Below, piece after piece: positions 2,750-49,065 of a DNA stretch of 49,065 nucleotides; position 1 is the stretch's first letter; the number at the start of each line of letters is the position of its first letter. Location of the stretch: the NCBI GenBank assembly GCA_018725535.1, contig QLUS01000001.1, forward strand, positions 1 to 49,065, read 5' to 3'. The DNA is from Bacillota bacterium. Lineage in GTDB: Bacteria; Bacillota; UBA994. Position numbers and translations under genes: made by a program. A model generated the notes under the pieces. That model made no database searches and was not told where the DNA came from. It worked only from the letters and a program-made list of their open reading frames with translations.

Positions 2750-2769
2750 GCGGGAAGATGGGCTTCTTA

Positions 2770-2790
2770 CCTCTTGCCTCTTGCCTCTTG
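2770..2790. repeat. Heptanucleotide tandem repeat (CCTCTTG)x3
   Basis: Three perfect head-to-tail copies of CCTCTTG lie between tRNA-Val(TAC) and tRNA-Arg. Confidence 0.8.
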
Positions 2791-12026: not shown

Positions 12027-12053
12027 TGTAAGGAGGAGAACGTTGGGAACATT

Positions 12054-12145
12054 GGGGACGGTTCCTTTTGTAACAGAGACCCGTCCCTTGGAACAAAAAA
12101 CCGTCCCCTAGAACCGTCCTCTGAAACAAAAAGAACCGTCCCTTA
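12054..12145. repeat. GGGGACGG...CCGTCCC palindromic element, copy 2, plus three further AACCGTCCC half-sites
   Basis: GGGGACGGTTCCTTTTGTAACAGAGACCCGTCCC (12054..12087) differs from copy 1 by one substitution. It is followed by AAAAAACCGTCCCC, GAACCGTCCTC and AAAAAGAACCGTCCC. The whole block sits between the riboswitch terminator and the btuF RBS. Confidence 0.8.
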
Positions 12146-12176
12146 TGTTCGGAAGCTAATTTAGGAGGAAAGTATA

Positions 12177-13076
12177 ATGAAACGCATCATTCTTATCTCG
12201 CTCATACTTGCACTCGCTTTTGCCTTATCGGGTTGCGCCGTGCTGAACGTGCTGCAGCCGAGCATTGTCGTAACAGATGACTTAGGGCGGGAAGTACGCC
12301 TAGAGCGTACAGCTAGCCGCATTGTGTCGCTTGCCCCAAGTAACACCGAGATGCTCTTTGCCCTAGGTATCGAGGGAAAGATAGTCGGGGTGACAACCAA
12401 CTGCGATTATCCGGCACAAGCTGCGACCAAAGAAAAAGTGGGGTCTTTCGGTACCCCTTCGGTGGAAAAAATAGTGAGCCTCCGGCCCGACCTTGTCTTG
12501 GCTGCCAGTTTGCATAAGACTGTGGGCGAACAACTTGCGGCACTCGGTATTCCCGTGATCGTACTTAACGCCGAGAGCATTCAAGGGGTATTAGACAACG
12601 CAGAACTGCTCGGACGCGTTACCGGAGCGGTAAGAGGCGCAGCACAGCTTAAGCGGCAGATTAGCGCGGATCTTAATGCTGTGGACGAGCGTGTGCAGGC
12701 CCTGGCTAATGAACAGCGCCCGTTGGTTTACTACGAGGTGTGGTCTAACCCCATCATGACCGCAGGGCCAAACACCTTTCTGCATGAACTGATCACCCGC
12801 GCGGGCGGTATCAACCTCGGCGCAACTGCCACCACGAATTGGCCGACGCTTTCTCTGGAAGAGCTTCTGTCGCGGCAACCGCAGGTCATGTTCTACGGGC
12901 ACGCCACAGAGACGGTGGAGCAGATCAAAGCGCGCCCTGATTGGGGCAGCATCCCTGCACTGAGGGAGGGACGGGTGTATCTTGTAGACGAAAACCTGAT
13001 CCTGCGGCCGGGCCCGCGCATTGGACAAGCTTTGCGGCTACTTGCCTCCCAACTACATCCTGACCTATGGCGGTAG
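12177..13076 (+). CDS. btuF: Cobalamin/siderophore-type ABC transporter substrate-binding lipoprotein
   Basis: Lipoprotein signal with lipobox LSGC, a cluster A-II periplasmic binding fold (IVSLAPSNTEMLFALG...PDLVLA), and B12 riboswitch control. Confidence 0.85.
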   Translation: MKRIILISLILALAFALSGCAVLNVLQPSIVVTDDLGREVRLERTASRIVSLAPSNTEMLFALGIEGKIVGVTTNCDYPAQAATKEKVGSFGTPSVEKIVSLRPDLVLAASLHKTVGEQLAALGIPVIVLNAESIQGVLDNAELLGRVTGAVRGAAQLKRQISADLNAVDERVQALANEQRPLVYYEVWSNPIMTAGPNTFLHELITRAGGINLGATATTNWPTLSLEELLSRQPQVMFYGHATETVEQIKARPDWGSIPALREGRVYLVDENLILRPGPRIGQALRLLASQLHPDLWR

Positions 13077-28359: not shown

Positions 28360-29538
28360 TTATTGAATGACTCCCATTTCTTTCGCTACTGCCGCAAAGG
28401 CTTCGAGGGCGAAATCGAGGTCGTCCCTAGTGTGTGAGGCCGATATCATGGCACGAATGCGCGCCTTTCCCTTGGCCACCGTCGGGAAGCCAATCTTGGT
28501 GGCAAACACACCCCTTTGGAACAGGCGACGGCTCATCTCGCCTGCCACTTCCGCTTCGCCAAGCATTACCGGTGTTATAGGCGTCTCGCTTTTCCCAATG
28601 TCAAAACCTAATCTGCTCATACCAGCCTTGAAGTAGCGGGCATTATCCCACAATCTCTCTACAGGCTCGCCGCTCGCCGTAAGGATTTCAATGGCCTTCG
28701 CTGTAGCTGCCACATCAGGCGGCGTAAGCGCCGAGCTAAACAGGAAGGGGCGCGCGCGCTGTTTAAGATACTCAATCAGCTTAGCGCTCCCGGCAGCAAA
28801 GCCGCCAATAGTCCCTATAGCCTTAGAAAAAGTGCCTACTTCCACGTCTACTTGACCGTGCAGGTGGAAGTGATCGACAATACCTCGTCCGTTCTCTCCC
28901 AGCACACCTTCGCCGTGGGCATCGTCGACCATAGTCATGGCGCCGTAGCGTTTAGCGATGGCCACAATTTGGGGCAGTTTGGCTATATCCCCGTCCATGC
29001 TAAAGACGCCGTCGGTGATGACCAGCACCCGCCCAGTGTTAACGCCCTTAAGCACTGACTCCAGTGAGTCCGGATCATTATGTTTGTAGACCTTAATCTC
29101 GGCACGACTTAAGCGTGCCCCATCAATAATGCTAGCGTGATTCAGCTCATCGGACACAATGATGTCGTCCTTACCGACTAAAGCGGCAATAACGGCGAGG
29201 TTAGCCATAAAGCCTGACTGCAACGTAAGTGCGGCCTCCACGCGTTTGAACTCAGCCACTTGCCTATCAAGCCCGGCGTGGAGACTCATAGTCCCGGCAA
29301 TACTCCGCACGGCAGCAGGACCAACGCCAAACTCGGAAATCGCATCCATGGCCGCTTGACGGAGACGCGGGTCGTTCGCGAGGTTTAGGTAGTTGTTTGA
29401 GCAGAGGTTGAGCTTCTTCTGACCGCCAATGACAATCCACGCGCCCTGCGCGCTCTCTATAACCTTGATGTCATTGTAAAGCCCGCTGCTCTTAAGCTCC
29501 TGCAGGATTTCGTCGATGAAACTGAGACTTTCTGGCAT
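28360..29538 (-). CDS. kbl: Glycine C-acetyltransferase (2-amino-3-ketobutyrate CoA ligase) / BioF-family PLP enzyme
   Basis: Alpha-oxoamine synthase motifs are present: [22 protein letters not shown] and the PLP lysine in [11 protein letters not shown] 29538 follows AAGGAGG by 6 nt. The ORF-track extension to 29661 translates the heptamer repeat array. Confidence 0.85.
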
Positions 29539-29553
29539 ATGTGACCTCCTTTT

Positions 29554-29623
29554 GTGAACTTTGAATCGTGAATCTTGAATCATGAACGGGGGAGGCTTCC
29601 CGCTTTCCGCTTTCCGCCGTACG
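29554..29623. repeat. Heptanucleotide array A
   Basis: Ten in-phase heptamers on the + strand: GTGAACT TTGAATC GTGAATC TTGAATC ATGAACG GGGGAGG CTTCCCG CTTTCCG CTTTCCG CCGTACG. Confidence 0.85.
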
Positions 29624-29626
29624 CCT

Positions 29627-30001
29627 CTACTGCCTCTCCTTACCCGAGAGGTGCTTTTCATAGATTGTTTCTCTCAGTTCCTCCGAGCGGAGGCTGCGCC
29701 AGTCAAGCTCTGAGGTGCCGCGTCGCGTCACAGGGTCAAACTTAAGTGAGGTCGGCTCGGCTAAGAACGTCAGCACCATGCGGTGCAAGCTTTCGTTGCG
29801 CTTCTCGCGGGAGAGGTGACGAGTGACTCTTACATCTGCGCCGGTTTGTGCGGCCACAGTGCGCCGCACGGCATCCTCTGGAGTTTCGCCCTCTTCCACG
29901 TCTCCGCCCGGCAGAGCCCATACTCCCCCGAGTGGTCTAACCATAAGCACATGATGGCCATTAAGGACAATAGCTTGAACGTAGATTCTGCGATAATCCA
30001 T
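29627..30001 (-). CDS. Nudix-fold protein with degenerate Nudix box
   Basis: [29 protein letters not shown] fits Gx5Ex7R, but the REUxEE glutamates read RTVAAQ. Confidence 0.7.
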
Positions 30002-30036
30002 GTTCGACTCTCCCTTCCATCATCTTCTCTAGCCTT

Positions 30037-30065
30037 AGCATACCAGAGGGCAATGTGCTGCGCAA
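30037..30065 (-). promoter_or_regulatory. Sigma-A-type promoter upstream of the Nudix-kbl-yhaM block
   Basis: The minus strand reads TTGCGC, a 17-nt spacer, then TATGCT. It lies about 35 nt upstream of the Nudix ATG, which is preceded by GGAAGGGAG. Confidence 0.4.
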
Positions 30066-30142
30066 CGCCGAGGCGACTCGCGCGAGTAGGGAAGCAGTAG
30101 GGACGGAGCCTTTTGCTTCCGTGGAGTACATCACGCGCGCGC

Positions 30143-30276
30143 CTGCCGTTAGCCGTTAGGAGGCTTTCCGCTTTCCGCTTTCCGCTTTCCGCTTTCCGTT
30201 AGCCGTTAGGAGGCTTCCCGCTTTCCGCTTTCCGCTGTACGCTGTAAGCTGTAAGCTGTAAGCTGTAAGCTGTAAG
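30143..30276. repeat. Heptanucleotide array B (duplicated module)
   Basis: + strand: TTAGCCG TTAGGAGG (CTTTCCG)x5, then TTAGCCG TTAGGAGG CTTCCCG (CTTTCCG)x2 CTGTACG (CTGTAAG)x5. It ends 8 nt before the stop codon of the 820-aa peptidase gene. Confidence 0.9.
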
Positions 30277-30284
30277 CGTCCCTC

Positions 30285-32747
30285 TTAGCGAAACAACGCA
30301 TTAAACAAAACCTTATACGTTCCCCTTGACTGCGCGCGGTGATGTGGTCGAAACCCAATCAGCACCACTCGCCCTTTTTTTACTGTGCACTCTAGGAGCG
30401 CCGCGCGCCCACTAAGCCTCTCTGCCCCATGCAACAAGCCGCACACGAGAGGATTGACCGCAGGGTAGCGGCCCACCGCTTTCGCTGTCTCATCGGCTGA
30501 GAACACGGGACTGCGCACAAAGACTACTGCCGCCGCCTGAGGCATGCCGTAGGCGAGCGGATGGCTAATGTCGAACGCAACCCGCAAGAAGGACCCAGGC
30601 ACTAGGAACTCGTCCTCGCGTGCGGAGCCGACCACATTAGTTACCTTAAGCCGCAGAGCTTCGATACACCAATCGCAGGCGTGGTCGACCCCAACCACGG
30701 TGCCCCCGCCCAGAGCGAACTCGCGGAGTGCCTGCGCTCCGGCCATACCCAGACCTCCGCAGTATTCCCTTGGGTAGACACCGGGCATCAGCCCTTCGCT
30801 GATAGTTTTCGCGCGCGCACTGGGTATAACCACCACGTCAAAGCGCTCGGCGAGCCCGCCCGCGCGGATATCTTGGTCTTTAAGCGTGGCATAGGGGATA
30901 GCGTGCTGCTCGAGCACAAAGCGCATAAACCCTTCATCCGGGTTAGGCACATATCCTTGATAAACCCCCACACGCGGCACCTGAGTAAGGGTCGTAACCG
31001 ACGGCAAGTCTGTGCCGGGCAGAGTCCCCACACTAAGTCCTAGGTCAGCAGCAAGCTCCATCACGAGCTCGCGCGCCTCCCCGCTTACTATCAGCGTGCC
31101 GGGTGGCAGTTCCGGGTCTTCACAATCATGCTTTAGCCGATGTACGGGGACCTCTGCTGCGAGGAATCGAGCCAAGGCCGTATACATCCCATTAGGTTCA
31201 GGGCGAATGTACAACCAACGCCCGTGCAGTGATACTGCAGGCGGATTGGGGACAAACCTTGGCGGCTGTTTGATACGGGCCAGTGAAGCCTTAAAAGGCG
31301 CGCGAATTTCGGTGACGGTGACACCCATCTGAATGGGAAGGCTGTGGGCAGCCATATCGTAGGGCTGCCGCAGAAATCCATCAGAGAAACGACGCACGTC
31401 TGGGTAACTCTGATTCTCGAGCAGCGTCTTGGCAAAAGAGGAATACGGCTGCTGCATCAGCACTACGTAGTTGCCTGCTGTGTAGTCCACGCCGTCGGCA
31501 GAAAACGGCAGCAGAGCCGCATGGATCTCCACACCGCCAAACATCAGTAGCTCGATGAGCTCAGCCGCGACTCGTGGGTCACGCTGCTTAGGCGGCAAGA
31601 CAAAGGCGTAAGTATAGGGTTTTGGTGCAGTGGCCCGCTGTCCAATCGCGACAAAGTTCTTAAGCCACAGCCTGCGATACTTGGCGGCGTGCCGAAGGCA
31701 AGCGAGGGCTGCTAGCTTGCAGTATTCCACTATGTCACGTAAGCGCCACTCGCCCCCTCTCCACGGCTCTGGCTGGTTCCATGTGGCGATGCGCGGGTCA
31801 TACCCCCTGCCCCCGCGCAGATGTTGCTCGTCAAGCGTTACAGGCGTGGCCAGTCTCGCACTCGCCACCTCGGCCAGAATGCGCACTCCCCCGTGGTAGT
31901 GTTGGTAGCTGCGGCTCGGAGAATAGGCGTCGTATGTTACGTTCGTCATCACGCCAGTCTTCCCGTGCGCAGACAACTCAGCCGCGATGGTTTGCCCGAG
32001 CCACGCCGCACCTTGGCGGATGAGGGGATCGACATTGGGGTCATAGGGGTCGACAAAGGGGGGTAGTACTATGCGCGGCCCGTCTTGGCCCTGTTGATGG
32101 AAATCAAGCACTATTTGCGGGTGCCAAGTGTTATGGATATGTTCTACCATCAACCGTGTCTCCTGTTGTGTGAACATAAACCAGTCACGGTTATTGTCGT
32201 GCCCGGCATAGCGGTGATAAAGCTGTGGCGGTGCCGTCCCCTCATAAGCTGTGCCAAGCGTTTGCCGGTACCAATCAACGACTAGATCTAAGCCGTCCGG
32301 GTTTGCGCAAGGGACAAGCAGCAGAACGGTATTATCGAGCGATTCCATAGTCTCTTCGTCACACGCCGTCACTAACTCATAGGCCAGCTCGAGGCTCATT
32401 TGCGTGGGGCCGACCTCTGTGGCATGGATGCTGTTTGTCATTAAAACAACTGTCTTACCTAGCGCCATAAGCTCGGCTAATTGGTTGTCCTGCTTCCCAC
32501 GTGGGTCAGCCAGCTCTCTTTGCACTTGCTCAATTTGCTCTAACCGCGCGTGGTTTTCGCTCGACGTAATTACCACCAACAGAAAGGGGCGCCCTTCCGT
32601 ACTCCGGCCAATTTCAGTCACCCTACAACGGGGGCTACTTTCGCTGAGCACGCGAAAATAGCCTGTGATTTGCTCCCAATCGGCAAGGCTCCTGTCCGCG
32701 CCTACGGGGAAACCTAGGTGCTGTTCGGGACTACGCAAGGGCGTCAC
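30285..32747 (-). CDS. Large M14-family metallopeptidase with additional C-terminal domains
   Basis: 820 aa. The N-terminal M14 domain carries STEGRPFLLVVI, HxxE in NSIHATEVG, CANPDG and HDNNRDWF. About 450 further residues have no assigned function. Confidence 0.8.
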   Translation of the reverse strand: MTPLRSPEQHLGFPVGADRSLADWEQITGYFRVLSESSPRCRVTEIGRSTEGRPFLLVVITSSENHARLEQIEQVQRELADPRGKQDNQLAELMALGKTVVLMTNSIHATEVGPTQMSLELAYELVTACDEETMESLDNTVLLLVPCANPDGLDLVVDWYRQTLGTAYEGTAPPQLYHRYAGHDNNRDWFMFTQQETRLMVEHIHNTWHPQIVLDFHQQGQDGPRIVLPPFVDPYDPNVDPLIRQGAAWLGQTIAAELSAHGKTGVMTNVTYDAYSPSRSYQHYHGGVRILAEVASARLATPVTLDEQHLRGGRGYDPRIATWNQPEPWRGGEWRLRDIVEYCKLAALACLRHAAKYRRLWLKNFVAIGQRATAPKPYTYAFVLPPKQRDPRVAAELIELLMFGGVEIHAALLPFSADGVDYTAGNYVVLMQQPYSSFAKTLLENQSYPDVRRFSDGFLRQPYDMAAHSLPIQMGVTVTEIRAPFKASLARIKQPPRFVPNPPAVSLHGRWLYIRPEPNGMYTALARFLAAEVPVHRLKHDCEDPELPPGTLIVSGEARELVMELAADLGLSVGTLPGTDLPSVTTLTQVPRVGVYQGYVPNPDEGFMRFVLEQHAIPYATLKDQDIRAGGLAERFDVVVIPSARAKTISEGLMPGVYPREYCGGLGMAGAQALREFALGGGTVVGVDHACDWCIEALRLKVTNVVGSAREDEFLVPGSFLRVAFDISHPLAYGMPQAAAVVFVRSPVFSADETAKAVGRYPAVNPLVCGLLHGAERLSGRAALLECTVKKGRVVLIGFRPHHRAQSRGTYKVLFNALFR

Positions 32748-32813
32748 CTCCTCTTGTGAACTGGGAACTGTGAGCTAGGGAGAAACAAAAATCAAAGGTG
32801 ATGGACCATGGAT

Positions 32814-32877
32814 GGGGGAGGCTTTCCGCTTTCCGCTTTCCGCTTTCCGCTGTCCGCTGTAAGCCGTAAGCTGTAAG
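32814..32877. repeat. Heptanucleotide array C
   Basis: + strand: GGGGGAGG (CTTTCCG)x4 CTGTCCG CTGTAAG CCGTAAG CTGTAAG. It lies in the divergent intergenic region between the M14 gene and the decarboxylase gene. Confidence 0.9.
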
Positions 32878-32894
32878 CTCTCACAAATGGGCAC

Positions 32895-32923
32895 TTGAAC
32901 ATTGCTCGCCATAGGTTTAATAT
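32895..32923 (+). promoter_or_regulatory. Sigma-A-type promoter of the decarboxylase gene
   Basis: TTGAAC, a 17-nt spacer, then TAATAT. This implies a 5' leader of about 120 nt before the start codon. Confidence 0.55.
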
Positions 32924-33051
32924 ATCGCTGTATGCGCAAAGTTAGAGAAACATGCGGAAAACAGAGCAAAACGCTAACCACCGCGCAGGATGGCAGTTTA
33001 CGGCATATTAAGCGACATATCGCATCATTAGGACGACAGGAGGCTCTCGAG

Positions 33052-34539
33052 TTGAGGAACAAGAAGGGCACCGCGCACATGGCACTCGAGCGCAGGCAAA
33101 GCCGCACACCGCTTTTTGACGCTTTGCGCAACTACGTGCGTGAAGGTACACTCTCTTTTCATGTCCCCGGCCACAAGCACGGCAAGGGGCTGCCTGAGTT
33201 TACTCGCTTTGTGGGTAAGAACGTCATGAACATCGATCTTACGATCATGCCGGACCTCGACAGCATCTACAAGCCGCACGGGCCAATCAAAGCCGCACAA
33301 GACTTAGCCGCCGAGGCCTTTGGGGCTGACTACGCGCACTTCCTCAGTAATGGCACGACCGCTGGCATTCACTGCATGTTGATGTCTACTTTGCGCCCGG
33401 GCGACAAGTTTATCGTGCCGCGCAATGCCCACAAATCCGTTATTTCGGCAATGATTCTTACTGGGGCCGAACCGGTGTACATCCAGCCCTACGTAGATAA
33501 TTACCTCGGCGTAGCCATGGCCATTACCGCCGATGAAGTACGGCAGGCCTTGCGCCAGCAGCCCGATGCCAAAGCCGTTTTCGTCATTAACACTACCTTT
33601 TATGGTATGGCACCGGAACTTGAGCGCATCGTGGAGATCGCCGAGGACTACGAGATCCCGGTTCTAGTTGACGAAGCGCACGGGGCACACCTTAAATTCC
33701 ACCCTAGTCTCCCCCTGTCGGCCATGGAAGCCAAGGCGGACATGGCTGCCCTGAGTACGCATAAGCTCCTAGGCTCCATGACTCAGAGCTCGCTCTTGCT
33801 TACCCGCGGCGACTTAGTAGACCCGCAGTACGTTAAGACCACCCTGAATCTAACGCAGACTACCAGCCCCAGCTACCCCCTGCTAGCCTCGCTGGATATC
33901 GCGCGCAAACAAGTTTTCTTCCGCGGTCAAGAGATGCTTACACATGCCATTAACCTTGCTAACTGGGCGCGATACGAGATAAACAACAGCATCCCCGGCC
34001 TCTATGTCTACGGTAACGACATGGTGGGACAACCCGGTTGTTACGAATATGACCCCACTAAGCTGTGCATTAACGTGCGCGCCCTTGGCATTTCCGGCTT
34101 TGAAATGGAACGCATTCTAAGGCAAGGATTCCATATCCAAGTAGACCTCTCTGACTTGTACAACGTATTGTGCGTAGTAAGTATTGCCGACACGAAGGAA
34201 AACGTGCGCACCTTAGTGCATGCGCTGAGCGAAATTGCGCGTAAGTTTACCGTGCAAGACGTGCGCGAACATCCCATTGAGCTGCCGCCGCTCCCGGCTC
34301 TCGCATATTTGCCGCGCGAGGCCTTCTATGCGGAGACCAAGCGCGTGCCCCTAGAACAGGCCAAGGGCAAAATCGTAGCCGAAATGCTGATGGCCTATCC
34401 GCCCGGCATCCCCCTCATCTGTCCAGGCGAGATCCTCACGGAAGAAATCATTGACTACGTGCGCATGCTTACAGAAGCAGATGCACAAATTTACGGCACA
34501 GAGGACCCTAACGCTGAGTATATTAAGATTGTGCGCTAG
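33052..34539 (+). CDS. Orn/Lys/Arg decarboxylase (fold-type I PLP, SpeA/YaaO-like)
   Basis: TPLFDALRNYVREGTLSFHVPGHKHGKG, GTTAGIHCM and the PLP-lysine region LSTHKLLGSMTQSS. The start is either TTG 33052 (AGGAGG 8 nt upstream) or ATG 33079. The ORF-track start at 32902 is upstream of the predicted -10 element. Confidence 0.85.
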   Translation: MRNKKGTAHMALERRQSRTPLFDALRNYVREGTLSFHVPGHKHGKGLPEFTRFVGKNVMNIDLTIMPDLDSIYKPHGPIKAAQDLAAEAFGADYAHFLSNGTTAGIHCMLMSTLRPGDKFIVPRNAHKSVISAMILTGAEPVYIQPYVDNYLGVAMAITADEVRQALRQQPDAKAVFVINTTFYGMAPELERIVEIAEDYEIPVLVDEAHGAHLKFHPSLPLSAMEAKADMAALSTHKLLGSMTQSSLLLTRGDLVDPQYVKTTLNLTQTTSPSYPLLASLDIARKQVFFRGQEMLTHAINLANWARYEINNSIPGLYVYGNDMVGQPGCYEYDPTKLCINVRALGISGFEMERILRQGFHIQVDLSDLYNVLCVVSIADTKENVRTLVHALSEIARKFTVQDVREHPIELPPLPALAYLPREAFYAETKRVPLEQAKGKIVAEMLMAYPPGIPLICPGEILTEEIIDYVRMLTEADAQIYGTEDPNAEYIKIVR

Positions 34540-34544
34540 CCCGC

Positions 34545-34684
34545 GCGTAGCGTGGCGGCGTACAGCGTACAGCGTACGGAGGCGTGCTCCGTGCCCAGTG
34601 CCCAGTAGCGGAAAGCGGAAAGCGGAAAGCGGAAAGCGGAAAGCGGAAAGCCTCCCCCGTTCATGATTCACAGCTCAAAGCTCA
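34545..34684. repeat. Heptanucleotide array D (20 consecutive in-phase heptamers)
   Basis: + strand: GCGTAGC GTGGCGG (CGTACAG)x2 CGTACGG AGGCGTG CTCCGTG CCCAGTG CCCAGTA (GCGGAAA)x5 GCCTCCC CCGTTCA TGATTCA CAGCTCA AAGCTCA AAGCCCT. It fills the convergent gap between the decarboxylase and glnL-like genes. Confidence 0.9.
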
Positions 34685-34689
34685 AAGCC

Positions 34690-35550
34690 CTAGCGGCCTG
34701 CGGCCGCTTCATGCGCTAACGCATTTAAAAAGCGCTTAAGGCTTATCTTCCCTCCATAGGGCGCGTTGTGTTCAACATGCCGCATCTCGCACCGCACTTC
34801 GGCAAAGTCAAAAAACGTGGCTGCATAGTTCTCAAAGCGCGGGTGGGCGTAGTCCTCAAGCCCTAGCGCGGCTAGGTGACGCAAAGCGGATTGCACTGCA
34901 CGCCGCATGCGCTGCTCAGCCGCTTTTTGCGCAGTAAGGCTATCCCCCGCGACATGCAGAAGCAAGTCCTTCACGGATACGGTGTCCCTTGTATGGCCGC
35001 AGGCAATAAAAAGAGCTGCATCCTCCAAATCGCGTGCGCCTGACTCTCCACCAATGCCTAAATCATGCAGAAACGCCCTTATTTTGCGCCTCGTCTTGTC
35101 AGTCACCGCGGCGGGTTGCGGCGCAGTCGAGACACTGAGCTCGGCCATAGAGCGGTAGATACTGCTGACAGTTCGCTTTAGGGCGAGGGTTTCACACACC
35201 TTGGCTAAGACAGCGCGTACTTCCCTGCTATTGATCGGCTTGTGAATAAAGAAGTCAATGCCCGCATCGTAGGCTGCCTCCACCATCACCTTAGCCTGCA
35301 CTTGCGAGAGCATCACAAAAGAAGCCGTCAGGCTCGCGGACAACAGGCGTACCAGTTCAATGCCGTCCATATCTGGCAACAGCAAGTCAACCAAGACAAT
35401 ATCGGCGGCTGCGGAAAGCAGTGCCTGTCGTGCATCATGGCCGCAACTGGCAGAACCCGCCAGTACACCTAACCCGCTGTCCTGAATTACCTCTTGCAGC
35501 ATCCGCCTTACGGCAATGTCATCGTCGACCACGAAAAAGCGGTAGTGCAC
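34690..35550 (-). CDS. glnL: Response regulator, GlnL (YcbB) family
   Basis: Receiver domain (FFVVDDDIAVRRML...VLVDLLLPDMDGIELV) and YcbB-type output region. It closely parallels B. subtilis GlnL motifs (MLSQVQAKVMVEAAYDAGIDFFIHKPIN; PRFENYAATFFDF). GTG 35550 follows GAGGGGGG. Confidence 0.78.
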   Translation of the reverse strand: MHYRFFVVDDDIAVRRMLQEVIQDSGLGVLAGSASCGHDARQALLSAAADIVLVDLLLPDMDGIELVRLLSASLTASFVMLSQVQAKVMVEAAYDAGIDFFIHKPINSREVRAVLAKVCETLALKRTVSSIYRSMAELSVSTAPQPAAVTDKTRRKIRAFLHDLGIGGESGARDLEDAALFIACGHTRDTVSVKDLLLHVAGDSLTAQKAAEQRMRRAVQSALRHLAALGLEDYAHPRFENYAATFFDFAEVRCEMRHVEHNAPYGGKISLKRFLNALAHEAAAGR

Positions 35551-35551
35551 C

Positions 35552-36808
35552 TTAATCCCCCCTCGGCAGCGGTATTTGCACGCTAAACGTACTGCCCTTA
35601 CCCTGCTCACTACGCACCGAAATTTCGCCGGCGAGACTTTGAGCTATGGCTTTTACCTGAGCCAGGCCTAAACCTGTAGAGGCTTGCCCTGTGTCGGGGT
35701 TATACTTCGTCGTGTACCCAGGTTCAAAGACTACGCGTAGGTCTTGTTCGCTAATCCCTATGCCTGTATCTCGCACGGCAATATGTAAGTCCATGTCGAG
35801 GACCCGTACGTCTAACCACACAGTGCCCACATGTGGTATGGCTTCGATGGCGTTGCCCATCAGGTTGTTAATAATAGCTAGTATGCGGTGGTAGGCCGCG
35901 ACTTCTGCCTGCCCTTCAATAGAAGAGTGAATGGCAATGTCTTTGCCCTGCTCGTTCGCTAGGGCTTGGTTTGCTTTTACCGCGACTTCTGCGAGTGTCT
36001 GCAGTGCCAGCAGTTTCCCCTGGCTTTCCTTAACCACCACATGGCGGAGCCGCGCCGCCAGACGGGCAAAATCTCGCTTGGCGTCGTGGATTTCCCTCGC
36101 CACGGCCAAGGCGGATTCGGCTTCATCGAGTCCTGATGTTTTTAGCCGCTTGTACAACTGGTGGCTCTGCACCATCACCGATTCTACTTGGGCCAGTGTG
36201 TTTTCAAGATAGAGCAACTCCCCAGTCACATCAGAGGTCAAGAGCAGTAGGCGCCGAAATTCGCGCTCTCTCTGCTCCTGCTTGATGATGACCTCGCGCT
36301 GCTGCCAAGCCGTGTAAGCGAGCCCGGTCAAGGCTCCCCTCACCAAGGCCACTAACCCTAGGAGGTAAACCATAGGTAGAATATCCCGATTAGCGAAATC
36401 TCCCCGAACCACAAGTTCACCGATGTTTGCGCCCATATCGAGAAAAGCCAGACCCCAGACTATGTCTAGCCCCCCGCTGTTTAGCCCCTGTCGCCACAGA
36501 GCCAGCCCCACACCCAGCAAGAGATAGAAAACTCCGGCGGGATAGTGTTTGTCGAGGCCTTGCAGCAACGGTACTTCCGCCAACAAGAAGCCAGCTCCGG
36601 CGCGAAATACTGTGACTGCTACACCCGTGGCCAAACCCGCCACCGGACGGTTCAAACGCTCATGCACCAAGAGATAAAAGCAAAACACACTCACCGCTAG
36701 GCTAAACCTAAACCCGGTGCCAAAGGGAAAGAAACTGAAGTTGCTTACAAAAACGGTGAGAAGCGCGAGATAGGTGAGCGACTTAGTGTTCTGCCACAGC
36801 TTCCACAC
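35552..36808 (-). CDS. glnK: Sensor histidine kinase, GlnK (YcbA)-like, polytopic N-terminal sensor
   Basis: Five or six N-terminal TM helices, a phospho-acceptor region (AREIHDAKRDF) and a GHKL ATPase (NLMGNAIEA, DTGIGI, GLGLAQV). It ends 1 nt before the regulator start. Confidence 0.75.
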   Translation of the reverse strand: MWKLWQNTKSLTYLALLTVFVSNFSFFPFGTGFRFSLAVSVFCFYLLVHERLNRPVAGLATGVAVTVFRAGAGFLLAEVPLLQGLDKHYPAGVFYLLLGVGLALWRQGLNSGGLDIVWGLAFLDMGANIGELVVRGDFANRDILPMVYLLGLVALVRGALTGLAYTAWQQREVIIKQEQREREFRRLLLLTSDVTGELLYLENTLAQVESVMVQSHQLYKRLKTSGLDEAESALAVAREIHDAKRDFARLAARLRHVVVKESQGKLLALQTLAEVAVKANQALANEQGKDIAIHSSIEGQAEVAAYHRILAIINNLMGNAIEAIPHVGTVWLDVRVLDMDLHIAVRDTGIGISEQDLRVVFEPGYTTKYNPDTGQASTGLGLAQVKAIAQSLAGEISVRSEQGKGSTFSVQIPLPRGD

Positions 36809-45172: not shown

Positions 45173-45375
45173 TGGCGTATAGCACATGGCGCATAGCACA
45201 TGGCGGAGTTGTTATCTGCTTTCGGGCTGGCAGCGGGGGAGAAAGTAAAATCGGAGCACGGGGCACAAAGCACGTCTCCGCACGCCACTGGGCACTGGGC
45301 ACTACTCTATGTGCTATGCGCCATGCGCGGTCATGATTCACGATTCACAGTTCATGATTCAAGGAGGCCTCTCAC
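45173..45375. repeat. Heptanucleotide array E (29 in-phase heptamers ending at a start codon)
   Basis: + strand: TGGCGTA TAGCACA TGGCGCA TAGCACA TGGCGGA ... CACGGGG CACAAAG CACGTCT CCGCACG CCACTGG GCACTGG GCACTAC TCTATGT GCTATGC GCCATGC GCGGTCA TGATTCA CGATTCA CAGTTCA TGATTCA AGGAGGC CTCTCAC, then ATG 45376. Confidence 0.8.
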
Positions 45376-45843
45376 ATGTCAACCCAACCACGCAGAAGCG
45401 ACCGCACTGTCACTAGAGAAGAAGCGCTAGACTACCTCGCGCAGGCGGAGGTAGGATTCTTGGCACTAGCTACCGACAATGAACCCTACGCAGTACCACT
45501 CCACTTTGTCTTGCAGGGCATACCCTGTATTTTCACTGCGCCAAAGACGGGCGCAAGCTCGACATGCTGAGGCAGAATCCCCGCTGCTGTGTGGCAGTAT
45601 CGTTCTTGGACGGCATTAAGGAAGGGAAAGCGGCCTGTGACTTCGGTACGTATTACCGCAGCGCCATCGCCACAGGTGTCGCTCGGGTAGTGGACGATAC
45701 AGGCGAAAAAATTGCAGCGCTTAATGCGCTCACCGAGAAGCACGCCACCAAGGAATTTGTGCCTGCTGGCGCTCTCGACGCCGCGAAGGTTGTGGTGGTC
45801 GCCATCGACTGCCGAGGTCAGCGGCAAAGCGCGACGCAGGTAG
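45376..45843 (+). pseudogene. Pyridoxamine 5'-phosphate oxidase-family (FMN-binding split-barrel) gene with two frameshifts
   Basis: The N-terminus (RRSDRTVTREEALDYLAQAEVGFLALATDNEPYAVPLHFVLQG) is in frame 1. The middle (TLYFHCAKDGRKLDMLRQNPRCCVAVSF...AKVVVVAID) is in frame 0, starting about 45520. The C-terminus (AEVSGKARRR-stop at 45841..45843) is back in frame 1, starting about 45811. Confidence 0.7.
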
Positions 45844-45845
45844 CT

Positions 45846-47663
45846 TTACGCTCCTATCGCGTGTCCGGTGTCGTCGCCGCAGCAGTAGACCCTGTCCTTG
45901 CCCGCCTGCTTGGCACGGTACATAGCGGCATCCGCTGCACGCAACAGCCCCTCGGCGTTAGCTGCGTCCCGTGGATAGGAAGCAATGCCAGCGCTAGCCG
46001 TTGTCTGAATCGTCGCTACGCCGACCCGATACTCAAGTTGTCGTATCGCCTGCAAAACGCGCAGGGCGACAACACGAGCTTCTTCCGGCTCAGTATTTGG
46101 CAGGAGCACGGCAAACTCGTCGCCGCCGTAGCGCGTTACGATGTCACCGGCACGCACGCTGTCGCGGATGGTTTCAGCGAGGCGACGGAGATAGTCATCG
46201 CCCGCCATATGACTAAAGCGGTCATTGATGTGCTTTAAGCTGTCGGAATCTAGCATTAGTAAGGAAATAGAAGCTGTCTGTTCAGCCGCCTGCGCCACCA
46301 ACCTTGTGATGGACTCGTGAAATACCCGCGCGTTAGGGAGGCCGGTCATGCTGTCGGTCAATGCAAGTTGCAGCGTACGTTCATAGAGCTGGGCGTTATC
46401 CAGAGCGATAGCTGCTTGGCTAGCAATTGTAGATAAAAGCCCTGCGTGCTCAGTTGTAAAGGCTTCGGCTTGGTAGCTTTGGGCAGAAAGCGCCCCAATA
46501 ACTTCGTCCTGCAGAATAATAGGCACAACTAACACGCTCTGCACCACACGCTCGGGGTTGCCGTACATCTGTGCACCGGGTATGCTGCGGCCATAGGTGT
46601 TGTGTAGCACCGGGGCTTTAGTTAAGATGGCGCGAGAAGTAGGGCCCTGATTAAGCGCAAAAGTCACCGGCGGCTGCCTTTCCCCATCGTCGTACATAAA
46701 ACGTATCTCCACCTCTTGGCGTTCTGCGTGATACAAAGCCACGAAAAAAGCGCCGGCATCCATAACTCGGTTTGTCTCCGCGTACATGGCAGCAAACAAG
46801 TCTTCAAGCGACAAGTTCGCGGCAAACCGACGTCCAAGGTCGTTAAGCATCTTTAGGTAACTGGTTTGTGTGCGCTGCACGTCAAGGGAGCGACGCTTGG
46901 TGAGCGCTGTGGTGACGCTCGCGGCTATATATTCCAACGTGCGAAAAGCGGCGCGGTAACGGCGCCTAGGGCCGCGCACCGCGACTGCTAGGGCTCCGCA
47001 GCCTGCGTCATCGGTACAAAAGGCGACTGTTAGGACGTTAAACGGCGAGCTGTAAACCGCGTTAGTTGGTTTGTCTTGGCTGACCTCCCGTAAGTATCCC
47101 ATAAACTCCATTGGCCAATGCGCCGTTGTGCCGTGCTCCTCCTTGTCGCCGATGATGACCCACGCCGCACCGACGGCAGACGGCAACTTCATAAGCTGCT
47201 GTAGCGCGGAGTCTAACACTTCGTAGCTAGTCCCGCCGGCTGCGGCTATGGCAGAACTAGACTCCATCACCCGACGCAGGCTCCTTAACTCACGGCGCAA
47301 AATGTGCTGCCGACCGCGGGCAACGCGCACCTGCCGCCAGATGTAAAGCGTCAGCGACTGAACTATATGGGCACCTGCGGCCATGGCGACGATCTTAGCT
47401 GCAAGCAGACCCCACTCAGGCAACGGTGCCCTCGCCAGCATAAGCAAAACGGCCGACGGCAAAGCGTAAATGCCCAGCACAGCTGCGGCCCCTGTTAGAC
47501 CATAGTATCCCGCGGCGACTAGCGTACTAATCGCAACCACGGTCTCTAGGCTAAGCGAAGGCGCGTCAAGCAGCCAGACGGCCAGCAAGGCTCCCCCTAG
47601 AATGGTTATGGCTCCTAAGGGAACATGGCGAAAAAACCCCTCGCGCTTCGTTCGCACCACCAC
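45846..47663 (-). CDS. Membrane-bound GAF-GGDEF diguanylate cyclase
   Basis: N-terminal TM segments, a central GAF-like region, and a C-terminal GGDEF domain (LTGLPNAR, RYGGDEFAVLL). An RxxD I-site (RAGD) lies five residues upstream of GGDEF. Confidence 0.85.
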   Translation of the reverse strand: MVVRTKREGFFRHVPLGAITILGGALLAVWLLDAPSLSLETVVAISTLVAAGYYGLTGAAAVLGIYALPSAVLLMLARAPLPEWGLLAAKIVAMAAGAHIVQSLTLYIWRQVRVARGRQHILRRELRSLRRVMESSSAIAAAGGTSYEVLDSALQQLMKLPSAVGAAWVIIGDKEEHGTTAHWPMEFMGYLREVSQDKPTNAVYSSPFNVLTVAFCTDDAGCGALAVAVRGPRRRYRAAFRTLEYIAASVTTALTKRRSLDVQRTQTSYLKMLNDLGRRFAANLSLEDLFAAMYAETNRVMDAGAFFVALYHAERQEVEIRFMYDDGERQPPVTFALNQGPTSRAILTKAPVLHNTYGRSIPGAQMYGNPERVVQSVLVVPIILQDEVIGALSAQSYQAEAFTTEHAGLLSTIASQAAIALDNAQLYERTLQLALTDSMTGLPNARVFHESITRLVAQAAEQTASISLLMLDSDSLKHINDRFSHMAGDDYLRRLAETIRDSVRAGDIVTRYGGDEFAVLLPNTEPEEARVVALRVLQAIRQLEYRVGVATIQTTASAGIASYPRDAANAEGLLRAADAAMYRAKQAGKDRVYCCGDDTGHAIGA

Positions 47664-47700
47664 TCACCACCCCACTTATTGGGAATATACCCCTGGTAGT

Positions 47701-48948
47701 CTAGACTCGCTCTACCCAAGCCCCGAGCTGCGCTAGCTTAAGGTCTAGTCTCTCGTACCCGCGGTCCATATGGTCTATGCCATGTACTAATGTCTCACCT
47801 TCCGCCACCATACCCGCAAGAACCAACGACGCGCTTGCCCTGAGGTCACCGCCCCTTACCTCCGCGCTCGTCAGGCAATCCACACCCTCAATTATGGCGC
47901 TGCGACCCTCAATGCGTACGGACGCACCCATCTTGGTGAGTTCCTCGAGGTGCTTAAAGCGCTCGTCCCAAACTGTCTCGGTGACGATGCTTGTTCCATC
48001 CGCTATGGTGAGCAGTGTACTCATCGGGGCCTGAAAGTCTGTAAAAAATCCTGGATACGGCAAGGTCTTGACGTTAACAGCGGTAGGCCGTTCTGGCCCC
48101 ATGACGCGCACAGTGTCCTCACCGGCTACGACCACAGCACCCGTCTCCCGCAACTTAGCAACCACGGCATCAAGGTGCATGGGAATAACATTGTTAAGCT
48201 TTACGTCGCCACCGGTCAGGGCGGCCGCAATCATCAGCGTCGCCGCTTCACTCTGGTCAGGTATAATGCTGTGCTGGCAGCCATGCAGCCGCTTGACTCC
48301 CTGTATGCGAATAGTCTCCGTGCCCGGCCCAAAGACCCGCGCGCCCATGGCGTTAAGCATGTTCGAGAGGTCAATAATCCATGGCGCTTGGTAAGCATTG
48401 ATAATCGTAGTTTGCCCCTCGGTCAGCACCGCGCTTAGCATAGTGTTAATGGTCGCCCCCACGCTGGCTACATCCATGTAAACGGAATTACCGGAGAGCT
48501 TCTGAGCGGAGAGCTTAATGGAGCCGTGCTCAATGTGCGCCTCCGCACCTAACGCGCGGAATCCTTTAAGATGCTGATCAATCGGGCGGGGACCAATGTC
48601 GTCGCCGCCCGGCAGAGCTCCCTCGGCGCGGCCAAATCGCGCGAGCATCACGCCAAGCAAATAGTACGAAGCTCGCAGTTTGCGCATAAGTTCCGGCTTG
48701 GGGACAGCATAGACTAACCCGCGCGGGTCGATGGTCACGACGCCGTCAGCAAATGTAGCCTGTACGCCAAGGCCGCGTAGAATATCACAGAAGACCCGCA
48801 CATCGCTTAAGTCGGGTACATTTTCAATCGTCACGGGTTCATCGGCTAACAGCGCGGCCGGGATAGCCGCCAAAGCCACGTACTTTGAACCGTTCACGGT
48901 TACTTCGCCACGTAACCGTGTTTTTCCTTTCACTAACACACTCGTCAT
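47701..48948 (-). CDS. murA: UDP-N-acetylglucosamine 1-carboxyvinyltransferase, Asp-for-Cys active-site variant
   Basis: Collinear with E. coli MurA (LRGEVTVNGSK, LRASYYLLGVMLARFG, DLRASASLVLAG, IDRGYE). The active-site loop reads LPGGDDIGPRPID where E. coli has LPGGCTIGARPVD. ATG 48948 follows GAGGG. Confidence 0.88.
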   Translation of the reverse strand: MTSVLVKGKTRLRGEVTVNGSKYVALAAIPAALLADEPVTIENVPDLSDVRVFCDILRGLGVQATFADGVVTIDPRGLVYAVPKPELMRKLRASYYLLGVMLARFGRAEGALPGGDDIGPRPIDQHLKGFRALGAEAHIEHGSIKLSAQKLSGNSVYMDVASVGATINTMLSAVLTEGQTTIINAYQAPWIIDLSNMLNAMGARVFGPGTETIRIQGVKRLHGCQHSIIPDQSEAATLMIAAALTGGDVKLNNVIPMHLDAVVAKLRETGAVVVAGEDTVRVMGPERPTAVNVKTLPYPGFFTDFQAPMSTLLTIADGTSIVTETVWDERFKHLEELTKMGASVRIEGRSAIIEGVDCLTSAEVRGGDLRASASLVLAGMVAEGETLVHGIDHMDRGYERLDLKLAQLGAWVERV

Positions 48949-48979
48949 TGCATCGCCCTCGTCTTCTTCTATGCCCTTT

Positions 48980-49008
48980 ATTATCCTAGAGCAGGCGCGC
49001 AATGTCAA
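48980..49008 (-). promoter_or_regulatory. Sigma-A-type promoter of murA
   Basis: The minus strand reads TTGACA, a 17-nt spacer, then GATAAT. It ends about 30 nt upstream of the murA ATG. Confidence 0.55.
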
Positions 49009-49018
49009 CCGAAAATGG

Positions 49019-49065
49019 CTTTCCGCTTTCCGCTTGCAGCTGCTTGTGGGGAGGCGGATAGCGGA
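49019..49065. repeat. Heptanucleotide array F (truncated by window end)
   Basis: + strand: (CTTTCCG)x2 CTTGCAG CTGCTTG TGGGGAG GCGGATA GCGGA. It lies immediately upstream of the murA -35 element. Confidence 0.75.

Follow-up and report, generated by a model that had tools for sequence, protein, structure and literature searches.

The stretch of DNA analyzed here (the window) is a whole contig of 49,065 nucleotides (nt), the only contig of this genome that was analyzed, and it carries a family of tandem arrays of 7-nt units (heptamers) in the gaps between its genes. The contig comes from an NCBI metagenome-assembled genome (MAG) labeled Firmicutes bacterium, in which the M14 peptidase gene has the locus tag DDT20_00046; its 90% cluster mates are labeled candidate division NPL-UPA2 bacterium, and the lineage is given here by these database names only. 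The uncultured NPL-UPA2 lineage has been reported from serpentinite-hosted springs (PMC6305446, PMC9751293), and repeats are not mentioned in either of these two papers. The genes adjoining the arrays are ordinary genes of the housekeeping type: kbl (28360-29538, minus strand), a NUDIX hydrolase gene (29627-30001, minus strand), the M14 peptidase gene (30285-32747, minus strand), an Orn/Lys/Arg-type decarboxylase gene (32902-34539, plus strand), a response regulator gene with a histidine kinase gene (34690-36808, minus strand), and a gene for a GGDEF protein with murA (45846-49008, minus strand). The arrays are strictly of period 7 and noncoding, they differ between strains by whole units, and they recur in the same gaps while being present or absent at a given site.

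Period-7 arrays in the window

Arrays were detected with Tandem Repeats Finder (TRF), an exact scan, and a mismatch-tolerant scan, with 100 dinucleotide-preserving shuffles of the window as the control. The mismatch-tolerant scan returned 12 period-7 arrays totaling 358 nt (12 per 49 kb, with the contig end falling within an array) and zero arrays at periods 4, 5, 6, 8, 9, 10, 12, and 13, the signal at period 14 being a harmonic; the shuffled window gave a mean of 0.07 arrays and a maximum of 1. The exact scan found 22 period-7 runs with at least two copies versus none at periods 8 to 10. TRF placed period-7 arrays at 2765-2790, 29562-29586, 29595-29617, 30145-30159, 30163-30236, 30234-30277, 32821-32858, 32856-32879, 34558-34577, 34591-34606, 34607-34651, 34668-34688, 45286-45303, 45331-45361, and 49018-49035 and a 14-nt (2 x 7) array at 45173-45205, so that each position named in the original prediction carries one. 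By TRF and the period scans, the head-to-tail unit of 7 nt falls within the 5- to 11-nt unit size of heptanucleotide long simple-sequence repeats (LSSR).

Taken one by one, the arrays of the window are mostly short (18 to 65 nt), and every array of at least 18 nt is noncoding, lying between open reading frames (ORFs) or tRNA genes. Two-copy runs of 14 to 16 nt within ORFs number four (15917, 24065, 28665, and 47172), which is the chance level. The heptamer CGGAAAG/CTTTCCG occurs 26 times in the window versus an expected 6.7 +/- 2.5, and 21 of the 26 copies lie inside six arrays in five gaps. That this unit occurs in five loci had been predicted correctly, but the proposed ceiling of five copies is too low, as the longest array holds 6.4 copies (34607-34651). 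A vocabulary of units recurring in either orientation was also borne out, with units in both orientations over at least five gaps. The prediction that every gap between 29.5 and 34.7 kb is built from 7-mers stands for the presence of arrays but not for whole gaps, the promoter-proximal stretches 30002-30142 and 32880-33080 being nonrepeat. The predicted mini-array is present, at 2765-2790, but its unit, TCTTGCC, lies outside the shared vocabulary.

Anatomy of the arrays, gap by gap

Between the NUDIX hydrolase gene and kbl, an AU-rich array that reads GTTCATGATTCAAGATTCACGATTCAAAGTTCAC on the sense (minus) strand (29554..29586) stands directly 5' of the kbl Shine-Dalgarno site AAAGGAGG, downstream of which lies the kbl start codon (ATG at 29538). 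The variable part of this gap (29587..29623, plus strand) consists of a G-rich head, ACGGGGGAGG, followed by GCTTCCC GCTTTCC GCTTTCC GCCGTAC. As a separate observation, ACGGGGGAG heads occur in the window only as single copies (29586 and 34652). The gap between the peptidase and NUDIX genes holds a mosaic (30143..30277, plus strand) downstream of the peptidase stop codon (30285), which reads (GCCGTTA)2 GGAG (GCTTTCC)5 and then (CCGTTAG)2 GAG GCTTCCC (GCTTTCC)2 GCTGTAC (GCTGTAA)5, the units from GCTTCCC onward occupying 30213-30277. TRF also reported a 50-nt higher-order duplication within this mosaic, at 30146-30243, with a 93% match.

The decarboxylase and peptidase genes diverge, and in the gap between them (32814..32879, plus strand) the head GGGGGAGG is followed by (GCTTTCC)4 GCTGTCC GCTGTAA GCCGTAA GCTGTAA, and the units from 32821 to 32879 all share one 7-nt register. 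Both here and at 30213-30277, neighboring units differ by single in-register substitutions. Beside this array, 30 nt of the peptidase 5' leader (32780-32809) are missing in strains L127 and L128 (introduced below), and in a predicted fold the CACCUUU of these 30 nt pairs with the Shine-Dalgarno region.

The convergent gap between the decarboxylase stop codon (34539) and the response regulator stop codon (34690) is composed almost wholly of heptamers (34545..34689, plus strand). From left to right, it contains (GCGTACA)2.9, a small palindrome (CGGAGGCGTGCTCCG), (GCCCAGT)2, (AGCGGAA)6.4, an inverted head (CCTCCCCCGT), TTCATGATTCA, and then (CAGCTCA/AAGCTCA). Within 34540-34689, the heptamers start 6 nt past one stop codon and run to the other.

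A divergent gap farther along the window opens with a 14-nt (2 x 7) tandem of TGGCGCATAGCACA in 2.4 copies (45173..45209, plus strand; TRF). Together with 45301-45328 (28 nt, 86% complementary), this tandem makes up an inverted repeat of 28 to 37 nt, the tandem being its left arm; the right arm, CTATGTGCTATGCGCCATGCGC, follows (CACTGGG)2.6 in the feature at 45286..45328 (plus strand). The CACTGGG unit at 45286 and the GCCCAGT unit at 34593 are reverse complements of each other. A further array, TCATGATTCACGATTCACAGTTCATGATTCA (45331..45361, plus strand), stands directly 5' of an AGGAGG site and the ATG at 45376. The ORF that begins there (45376-45570) resembles the PNPOx family by eye (MSTQPRRSDRTVTREEALDYLAQAEVGFLALATDNEPYAVPLHF...) and runs for 64 codons before its stop, which could point to a frameshifted pseudogene or a sequencing error. 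Upstream of murA, (GCTTTCC)2.6 gives way to degenerate units (GCTTGCA GCTGCTT ... GGCGGATAGCGGA) that run to the contig end (49018..49065, plus strand).

Outside of 29 to 49 kb, the sole heptamer array is the mini-array of 3.7 TCTTGCC units found by TRF at 2765..2790 (plus strand), between tRNA-Val (2634-2709) and tRNA-Arg (2794-2868). These are the last two genes of a cluster of eight tRNA genes at 98-2868 on the minus strand (Val, Leu, Cys, Gly, Phe, Asp, Val, and Arg).

Two readings of the units themselves were considered and rejected. Small repeat ORFs exist within the arrays, but coding for heptapeptide repeats was discarded and these ORFs were treated as spurious because changes of 7 nt between strains shift the frame. 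A universal unit anchor of GC followed by five variable positions fits most units in the window but fails for GGTTGAC, AGTCATA, and ACTGGGA in relatives.

Variation among strains and related species

The window was compared with close strains (L126/L127, BBPF01; L128, DDT37; and L129, DDT38) that share 89 to 94% nucleotide identity with it, with the sister species represented by L118 to L121 (84% peptidase identity, syntenic contigs), and with other relatives ranked by peptidase identity (L130, 74%; L124/L125, 62%; L123, 60%; and L122, 55%). Arrays also occur in the close strains and in three sister species, so that confinement to the window, which would have counted against the original prediction, is excluded. 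Whole-unit differences were evident in the gap between the NUDIX gene and kbl, which is 81 nt long in L129, 88 nt long in the window, and 95 nt long in L126 and L128, with flanks that are otherwise near-identical; the allele units are (CGGAAAG)2, (CGGAAAG)2 plus CGGGAAG, and (CGGAAAG)4. The gap between the peptidase and NUDIX genes holds 2 to 3 units in L126, L128, and L129, versus arrays of about 135 nt in the window. In the decarboxylase/peptidase divergent gap, L127 and L128 have (ACGGTTG)n (ACGGGGG)n ... (AGCGGAA)2 where the window has (CTTACAG)3. On the 3' side of the decarboxylase gene, L128 (L128:1-124) carries an array of 16 or more GTGCCAT/GCGCCAT/GTGCTAT units, heptamers found in the window at 45.2 kb.

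Arrays occur in the same four gaps in L118 to L121 as in the window, mostly with other units (CTCCTAG/CTCCTGG, CGACAAG/CGTCAAG, GGTTGAC/GGTTCAC, and GCTGAGT). Over the relatives that carry arrays, the units often differ from those in the window. L119 differs from L118, L120, and L121 by one additional CTCCTGG and one fewer CGTCAAG, and the other three are identical in the gaps compared. Presence or absence at a single site was also seen, since L118 has (CTCACAG)2.7 at the site of an unrepeated GCTCACGGTTCC in the window; moreover, L118 has an array-rich gap of 265 nt at a place where the window, read by eye, appears to have almost no gap. Heptamer mosaics were likewise found in L130 and in L124/L125, and no arrays were found in L122 (22 kb) or L123 (12.5 kb).

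Several contigs end within arrays, namely, the window itself (49018-49065), L127 (L127:1-60), L128 (L128:1-124), and L130 (L130:1-35). This suggests that many more copies lie elsewhere in these genomes and that the arrays fragment short-read assemblies. The same tendency of contigs to end in arrays, together with an NN inside an array in L127, could be taken to mean that the arrays are an artifact of assembly or binning or low-complexity noise. However, arrays in the same gaps were recovered in three NCBI MAGs, one DDBJ metagenome, and four ENA/NCBI sister-species contigs, the arrays in the window are mostly short, and their excess over the shuffles is extreme. Because these strain and sister-species assemblies are independent, the arrays are not artifacts of this one assembly, and we regard an artifactual origin as scarcely credible.

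Structure and regulatory signals near the arrays

The predicted RNA structure of the array regions was unremarkable on either strand, with fold z-scores of -0.2 to +1.6 relative to shuffles, and an intrinsic-terminator scan found no terminator-like site in the arrays, including the convergent gap at 34540-34689. The only local inverted repeat found was 45173/45301. Palindromes of the repetitive extragenic palindromic (REP) or bacterial interspersed mosaic element (BIME) type and terminators were therefore rejected on the basis of these scores and scans, as the original prediction had anticipated for REP-like palindromes, array regions folding no better than shuffles. It had also dismissed clustered regularly interspaced short palindromic repeats (CRISPR), and this holds as well: CRISPR repeats measure about 23 to 50 nt and alternate with unique spacers of similar length, whereas the units here are 7 nt long and without spacers, and no cas genes are present among the neighbors checked. 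An Rfam search of the window returned only the tRNAs and a cobalamin riboswitch, with nothing at the arrays. Apart from the heptamers, a box of about 11 nt, (G)AACCGTCCCYT, is present five times at 12038-12150, downstream of the terminator of this riboswitch (RF00174, 11755-11938) and ahead of the ATG at 12177. The first copy is in inverted orientation (GGGGACGGTTCC), and TRF reports the region as a 33-nt repeat. These boxes may form a second leader element or an operator array.

Promoter-like and Shine-Dalgarno cores were found outside the arrays. The murA promoter-like site, TTGACA-17-GATAAT (49008-48980, minus strand), has an array starting 10 nt upstream of its -35 hexamer. The NUDIX promoter-like site, TTGCGC-17-TATGCT (30065-30037, read by eye), is kept in relatives, and at least 78 nt separate it from the arrays, which are upstream of it. 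In the gaps compared, the conserved cores are this NUDIX site and the Shine-Dalgarno sites of kbl and the peptidase gene.

One class of array is placed differently. Only three sites in the 49 kb show the pattern TTCA-N3-TTCA, and at two of these three, kbl and ORF 45376, a (TTCAYGA)n array adjoins the 5' side of the Shine-Dalgarno site in the sense orientation; the other arrays are farther upstream or in 3' gaps. The kbl array is near-invariant in L126, L128, and L129, and an array of the same kind is retained in L118. (TTCAYGA)n is the only array class that looks conserved, and, judging from this conservation and placement, it may have a role in the 5' leader. Pairing of an anti-Shine-Dalgarno CCUCC with the kbl Shine-Dalgarno site was considered and rejected, because neither the minimum-free-energy nor the centroid fold supports it and because the same head also occurs in a gap without a downstream gene.

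We therefore considered the possibility that the arrays are cis-regulatory platforms, i.e., tandem 7-nt sites, in DNA or in 5' or 3' untranslated regions, that would be read by a multimeric DNA- or RNA-binding protein. The position of the (TTCAYGA)n arrays immediately 5' of the two Shine-Dalgarno sites and the conservation of the kbl array among strains, and in kind in L118, are in keeping with such a role, as is the murA array that adjoins a -35 hexamer. In addition, CGGAAAG lies on the sense strand of one flanking gene in every gap of the window, including the one plus-strand array, which is beside the plus-strand decarboxylase gene, and the vocabulary is uniform within a genome and different between species, as if it were co-evolving with a reader protein. 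A similar proposal has been made for repeats just upstream of start codons (MacGregor 2015, PMC4679880). However, the units are not conserved at orthologous gaps, even among strains of 89 to 94% identity; a head-plus-array module is inverted between species in one gap; and the flanking genes (kbl and the NUDIX hydrolase, M14 peptidase, decarboxylase, response regulator, and murA genes) are functionally unrelated. Moreover, one TTCA array lies in a convergent gap, where there is no gene to regulate, and in our reading no purine/pyrimidine or strand rule relative to transcription is consistent over the lineage, such that a rule of purine-rich sense strands, true of CGGAAAG in the window, was rejected. 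No regulatory role was found for the heptamers of Xanthomonas and Nostoc either (Rehm et al. 2015, PMC4692102). On balance, we consider it unlikely that the arrays are cis-regulatory platforms of the kind proposed for the TAACTGA repeats of Beggiatoaceae, with a copy number that would tune expression.

Relation to known heptamer repeats

Bacterial heptamer arrays go back in the literature to the work on short tandemly repeated repetitive (STRR) sequences of cyanobacteria in 1990 and to the simple-sequence repeat census of 2007, and the units of STRR1 to STRR3 are CCCCAGT, TTGGTCA, and CAACAGT. The STRR heptamers of heterocystous cyanobacteria were reportedly described by Mazel et al. in that year. 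Like the arrays in the window, they comprise several heptamer units per genome, arranged in tandem, intergenic, in both orientations, at dispersed loci, and variable between strains. The host phylum differs, the window belonging to a Firmicutes/Bacillota MAG and not to a heterocystous cyanobacterium, and tandem pairs of these STRR1 to STRR3 units with at most one mismatch were absent from the window; only GCCCAGT x 2 came close, with two mismatches per pair. Its single mismatch per unit to STRR1 is within chance expectation.

STRR had been named as the nearest analogue, and this comparison holds, but the class of analogues is wider. In bacterial genomes rich in repeats of 5 to 11 nt, heptamers are the most abundant class of long simple-sequence repeat, and polymerase slippage has been offered as the reason for a unit of 7 nt (Mrázek, Guo, and Shah 2007, as cited in PMC4679880 and PMC4692102). 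The top LSSR genomes cited in these accounts are those of Burkholderia, cyanobacteria, actinobacteria, and Xanthomonas. As these accounts describe them, heptanucleotide LSSR belong to a 5- to 11-nt unit class in which 7 dominates, exceed chance length, are noncoding and phylogenetically sporadic, and have slippage as their proposed origin; a unit length indivisible by 3 accounts for their predominantly noncoding location. The window shares the features tested, namely, unit size, excess over composition, noncoding location, and length instability. It departs from LSSR as there described in that several different units follow one another in a single register and occupy the greater part of a gap. 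It follows that the arrays belong to a known class of heptamer long simple-sequence repeats, with unit sequences that differ from those of the described repeats, and that, as far as these secondary accounts go, their novelty is lower than first judged. The earlier statement that no equivalent was known in Bacillota-like genomes agrees with our literature search, which found no description of such arrays for Bacillota or NPL-UPA2.

Other described heptamers resemble the arrays in part. In Xanthomonas, GGGAATC heptamers lie between the same genes in two species and vary widely in length and sequence, and the heptameric repeat unit of Nostoc is GGGGA(C/T)T (Rehm et al. 2015, PMC4692102). Arrays that occupy the same gap and yet vary were also found among the window, the close strains, and L118, and no regulatory role has been established for the Xanthomonas heptamers. 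The Xanthomonas and Nostoc units contain G-tracts that form G-quadruplexes, with four copies preferred, whereas the units in the window have no G-tracts. A G-tract of at least 3 nt in at least four units is not found in the window; only (ACGGGGG)4 in L127 and L128 would qualify. The (ACGGGGG)n runs at L127:29-60 and L128:1779-1797 would be prone to G-quadruplex formation.

Direct repeats of TAACTGA occur in marine Beggiatoaceae, some cyanobacteria, and Bacteroidetes, mostly between genes, and many lie a few nucleotides upstream of start codons across phyla (MacGregor 2015, PMC4679880). Their copies near start codons recall the (TTCAYGA)n arrays, and their recurrence across phyla recalls the GCTTTCC arrays described below. 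Unlike the arrays here, in which at least eight units form mosaics, one unit dominates there and related heptamers are rarely repeated; furthermore, most arrays here appear not to be near start codons, and tandem TAACTGA is absent from the window even at two mismatches. Identity with the STRR, TAACTGA, or GGGAATC units was rejected, the two near-matches being within a back-of-envelope chance expectation of about 1.4. The phase-variable contingency loci and variable-number tandem-repeat typing loci of pathogens likewise differ between strains by whole units, but the arrays in the window lie outside ORFs and not between -35 and -10 hexamers, and their neighbors are housekeeping genes rather than surface or restriction-modification genes.

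Discussion

We consider it probable, with moderate confidence, that the arrays are hypervariable heptanucleotide microsatellites (long simple-sequence repeats), that is, slippage-driven and near-neutral mosaics in dispensable intergenic DNA. Under this explanation, arrays would arise and be resized by strand slippage or unequal exchange in steps of 7 nt, and units altered by point mutation would then be amplified in register, for example along the series CTTTCCG > CTGTCCG > CTGTACG > CTGTAAG. Larger blocks could be duplicated as well, as may have happened with the 50 nt at 30146-30243. A unit library common to the lineage (ACGGGGG, GGTTGAC, TTCAYGA, GTGCTAT/GCGCCAT, CGGAAAG, and others) would be amplified differently in each genome, and arrays would occasionally be copied ectopically from one to another by template switching or conversion. 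Since the arrays lack locus-specific conservation and structure, are flanked by unrelated genes, and lie outside promoter and Shine-Dalgarno cores, most of them are probably spacer DNA of nearly neutral effect that contributes mainly length polymorphism.

Several observations weigh against this explanation in its simplest form. An ordered composite, (TGAATCN)n-TGAACGGGGGAGG-(CTTTCCG)n, recurs in unlinked gaps in either orientation, such that 29559-29624 matches 34622-34687 inverted (66 nt, 82%) and 32802-32858 matches 34614-34670 (57 nt, 91%), neither of which plain local slippage would explain. At one and the same gap, the window and L118 carry a head-plus-array module in opposite orientations, and in the decarboxylase 3' gap the vocabulary is wholly swapped between the window and L128, with flanks about 91% identical. 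The conservation of (TTCAYGA)n implies that not all of the arrays are neutral, and the explanation does not of itself account for the exclusive period of 7. Furthermore, all of the sequences are short-read MAGs or metagenome contigs, in which the copy numbers of longer arrays may be collapsed. The ordered modules common to unlinked gaps, the module inversion, and the wholesale array swap were tentatively attributed to the occasional ectopic copying proposed above.

The same observations raise the alternative that the arrays are actively dispersed or made, by template switching, gene conversion, a small mobile element, or an enzyme that makes 7-nt repeats, with local slippage playing a minor part. 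The gaps with common ordered modules of 57 to 66 nt, in either orientation, lie 1.7 to 5 kb apart; a (CTCCTRG)n-TAGAGG/TAGATT module occurs three times within L118; and the inversion of a module between species at one gap and the replacement of an entire array by units found elsewhere in the genome would follow readily from such a process. The recurrence of (GCTTTCC)n mosaics in distant phyla points the same way. When species-representative genomes were scanned for (GCTTTCC)3, at least 117 loci were found in a query-biased sample, this lineage being outside the matches listed, so that the scan has no bearing on the genome-wide copy number in it; among the matches listed, most loci fell in MAGs of Verrucomicrobiota, Planctomycetota, and Bacteroidales, and several of these MAGs contributed many contigs. 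Period-7 arrays of at least 60 nt are contained in 59 of the at least 117 loci, many with mosaics of other heptamers beside the seed. Individual cases include L065, with nine arrays in 7 kb, and L105, with 28 copies, further examples being L080, L053, and L020. Heptamer-rich genomes thus occur in these three groups, which does not make GCTTTCC special.

However, the cross-phylum matches are heterogeneous, and many are exact 21-nt runs within long stop-free spans. By this crude test, 64 of 104 seeds among the matches listed lie in such spans, and about half of the seeds listed may be inside coding sequence. Neither terminal inverted repeats nor target-site duplications, a transposase, or a reverse transcriptase was seen around the modules. 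In addition, the gap comparisons show change unit by unit (2, 3, or 4 copies), as is typical of slippage, and the units are related by single in-register substitutions. Active dispersal with slippage in a minor role thus appears improbable to us, and we remain nearly as doubtful of the broader proposal that the arrays are made or exchanged by an active, sequence-guided process, whether template switching, conversion, or an unrecognized enzyme or reader that works in 7-nt steps. Such a process would explain the sharing and inversion of modules, the array replacement between strains about 91% identical, and the GCTTTCC-type mosaics across phyla.

The function of heptamer arrays and the reason for the 7-nt period have not been established (Rehm et al. 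2015, PMC4692102), and the lineage examined here offers a compact natural series, running from strains at 89 to 94% through species with arrays at 84, 74, and 62% to relatives without arrays at 55 to 60%, that can be used to ask what co-varies with heptamer richness. In practical terms, the arrays appear to break short-read assemblies and to yield spurious small ORFs, and they are ready strain markers for metagenomes of serpentinite-spring sites. If an active process is indeed at work, heptamer-rich genomes across phyla would share a mechanism, and phylogenetic profiling against the heptamer-free L122 and L123 could find it.

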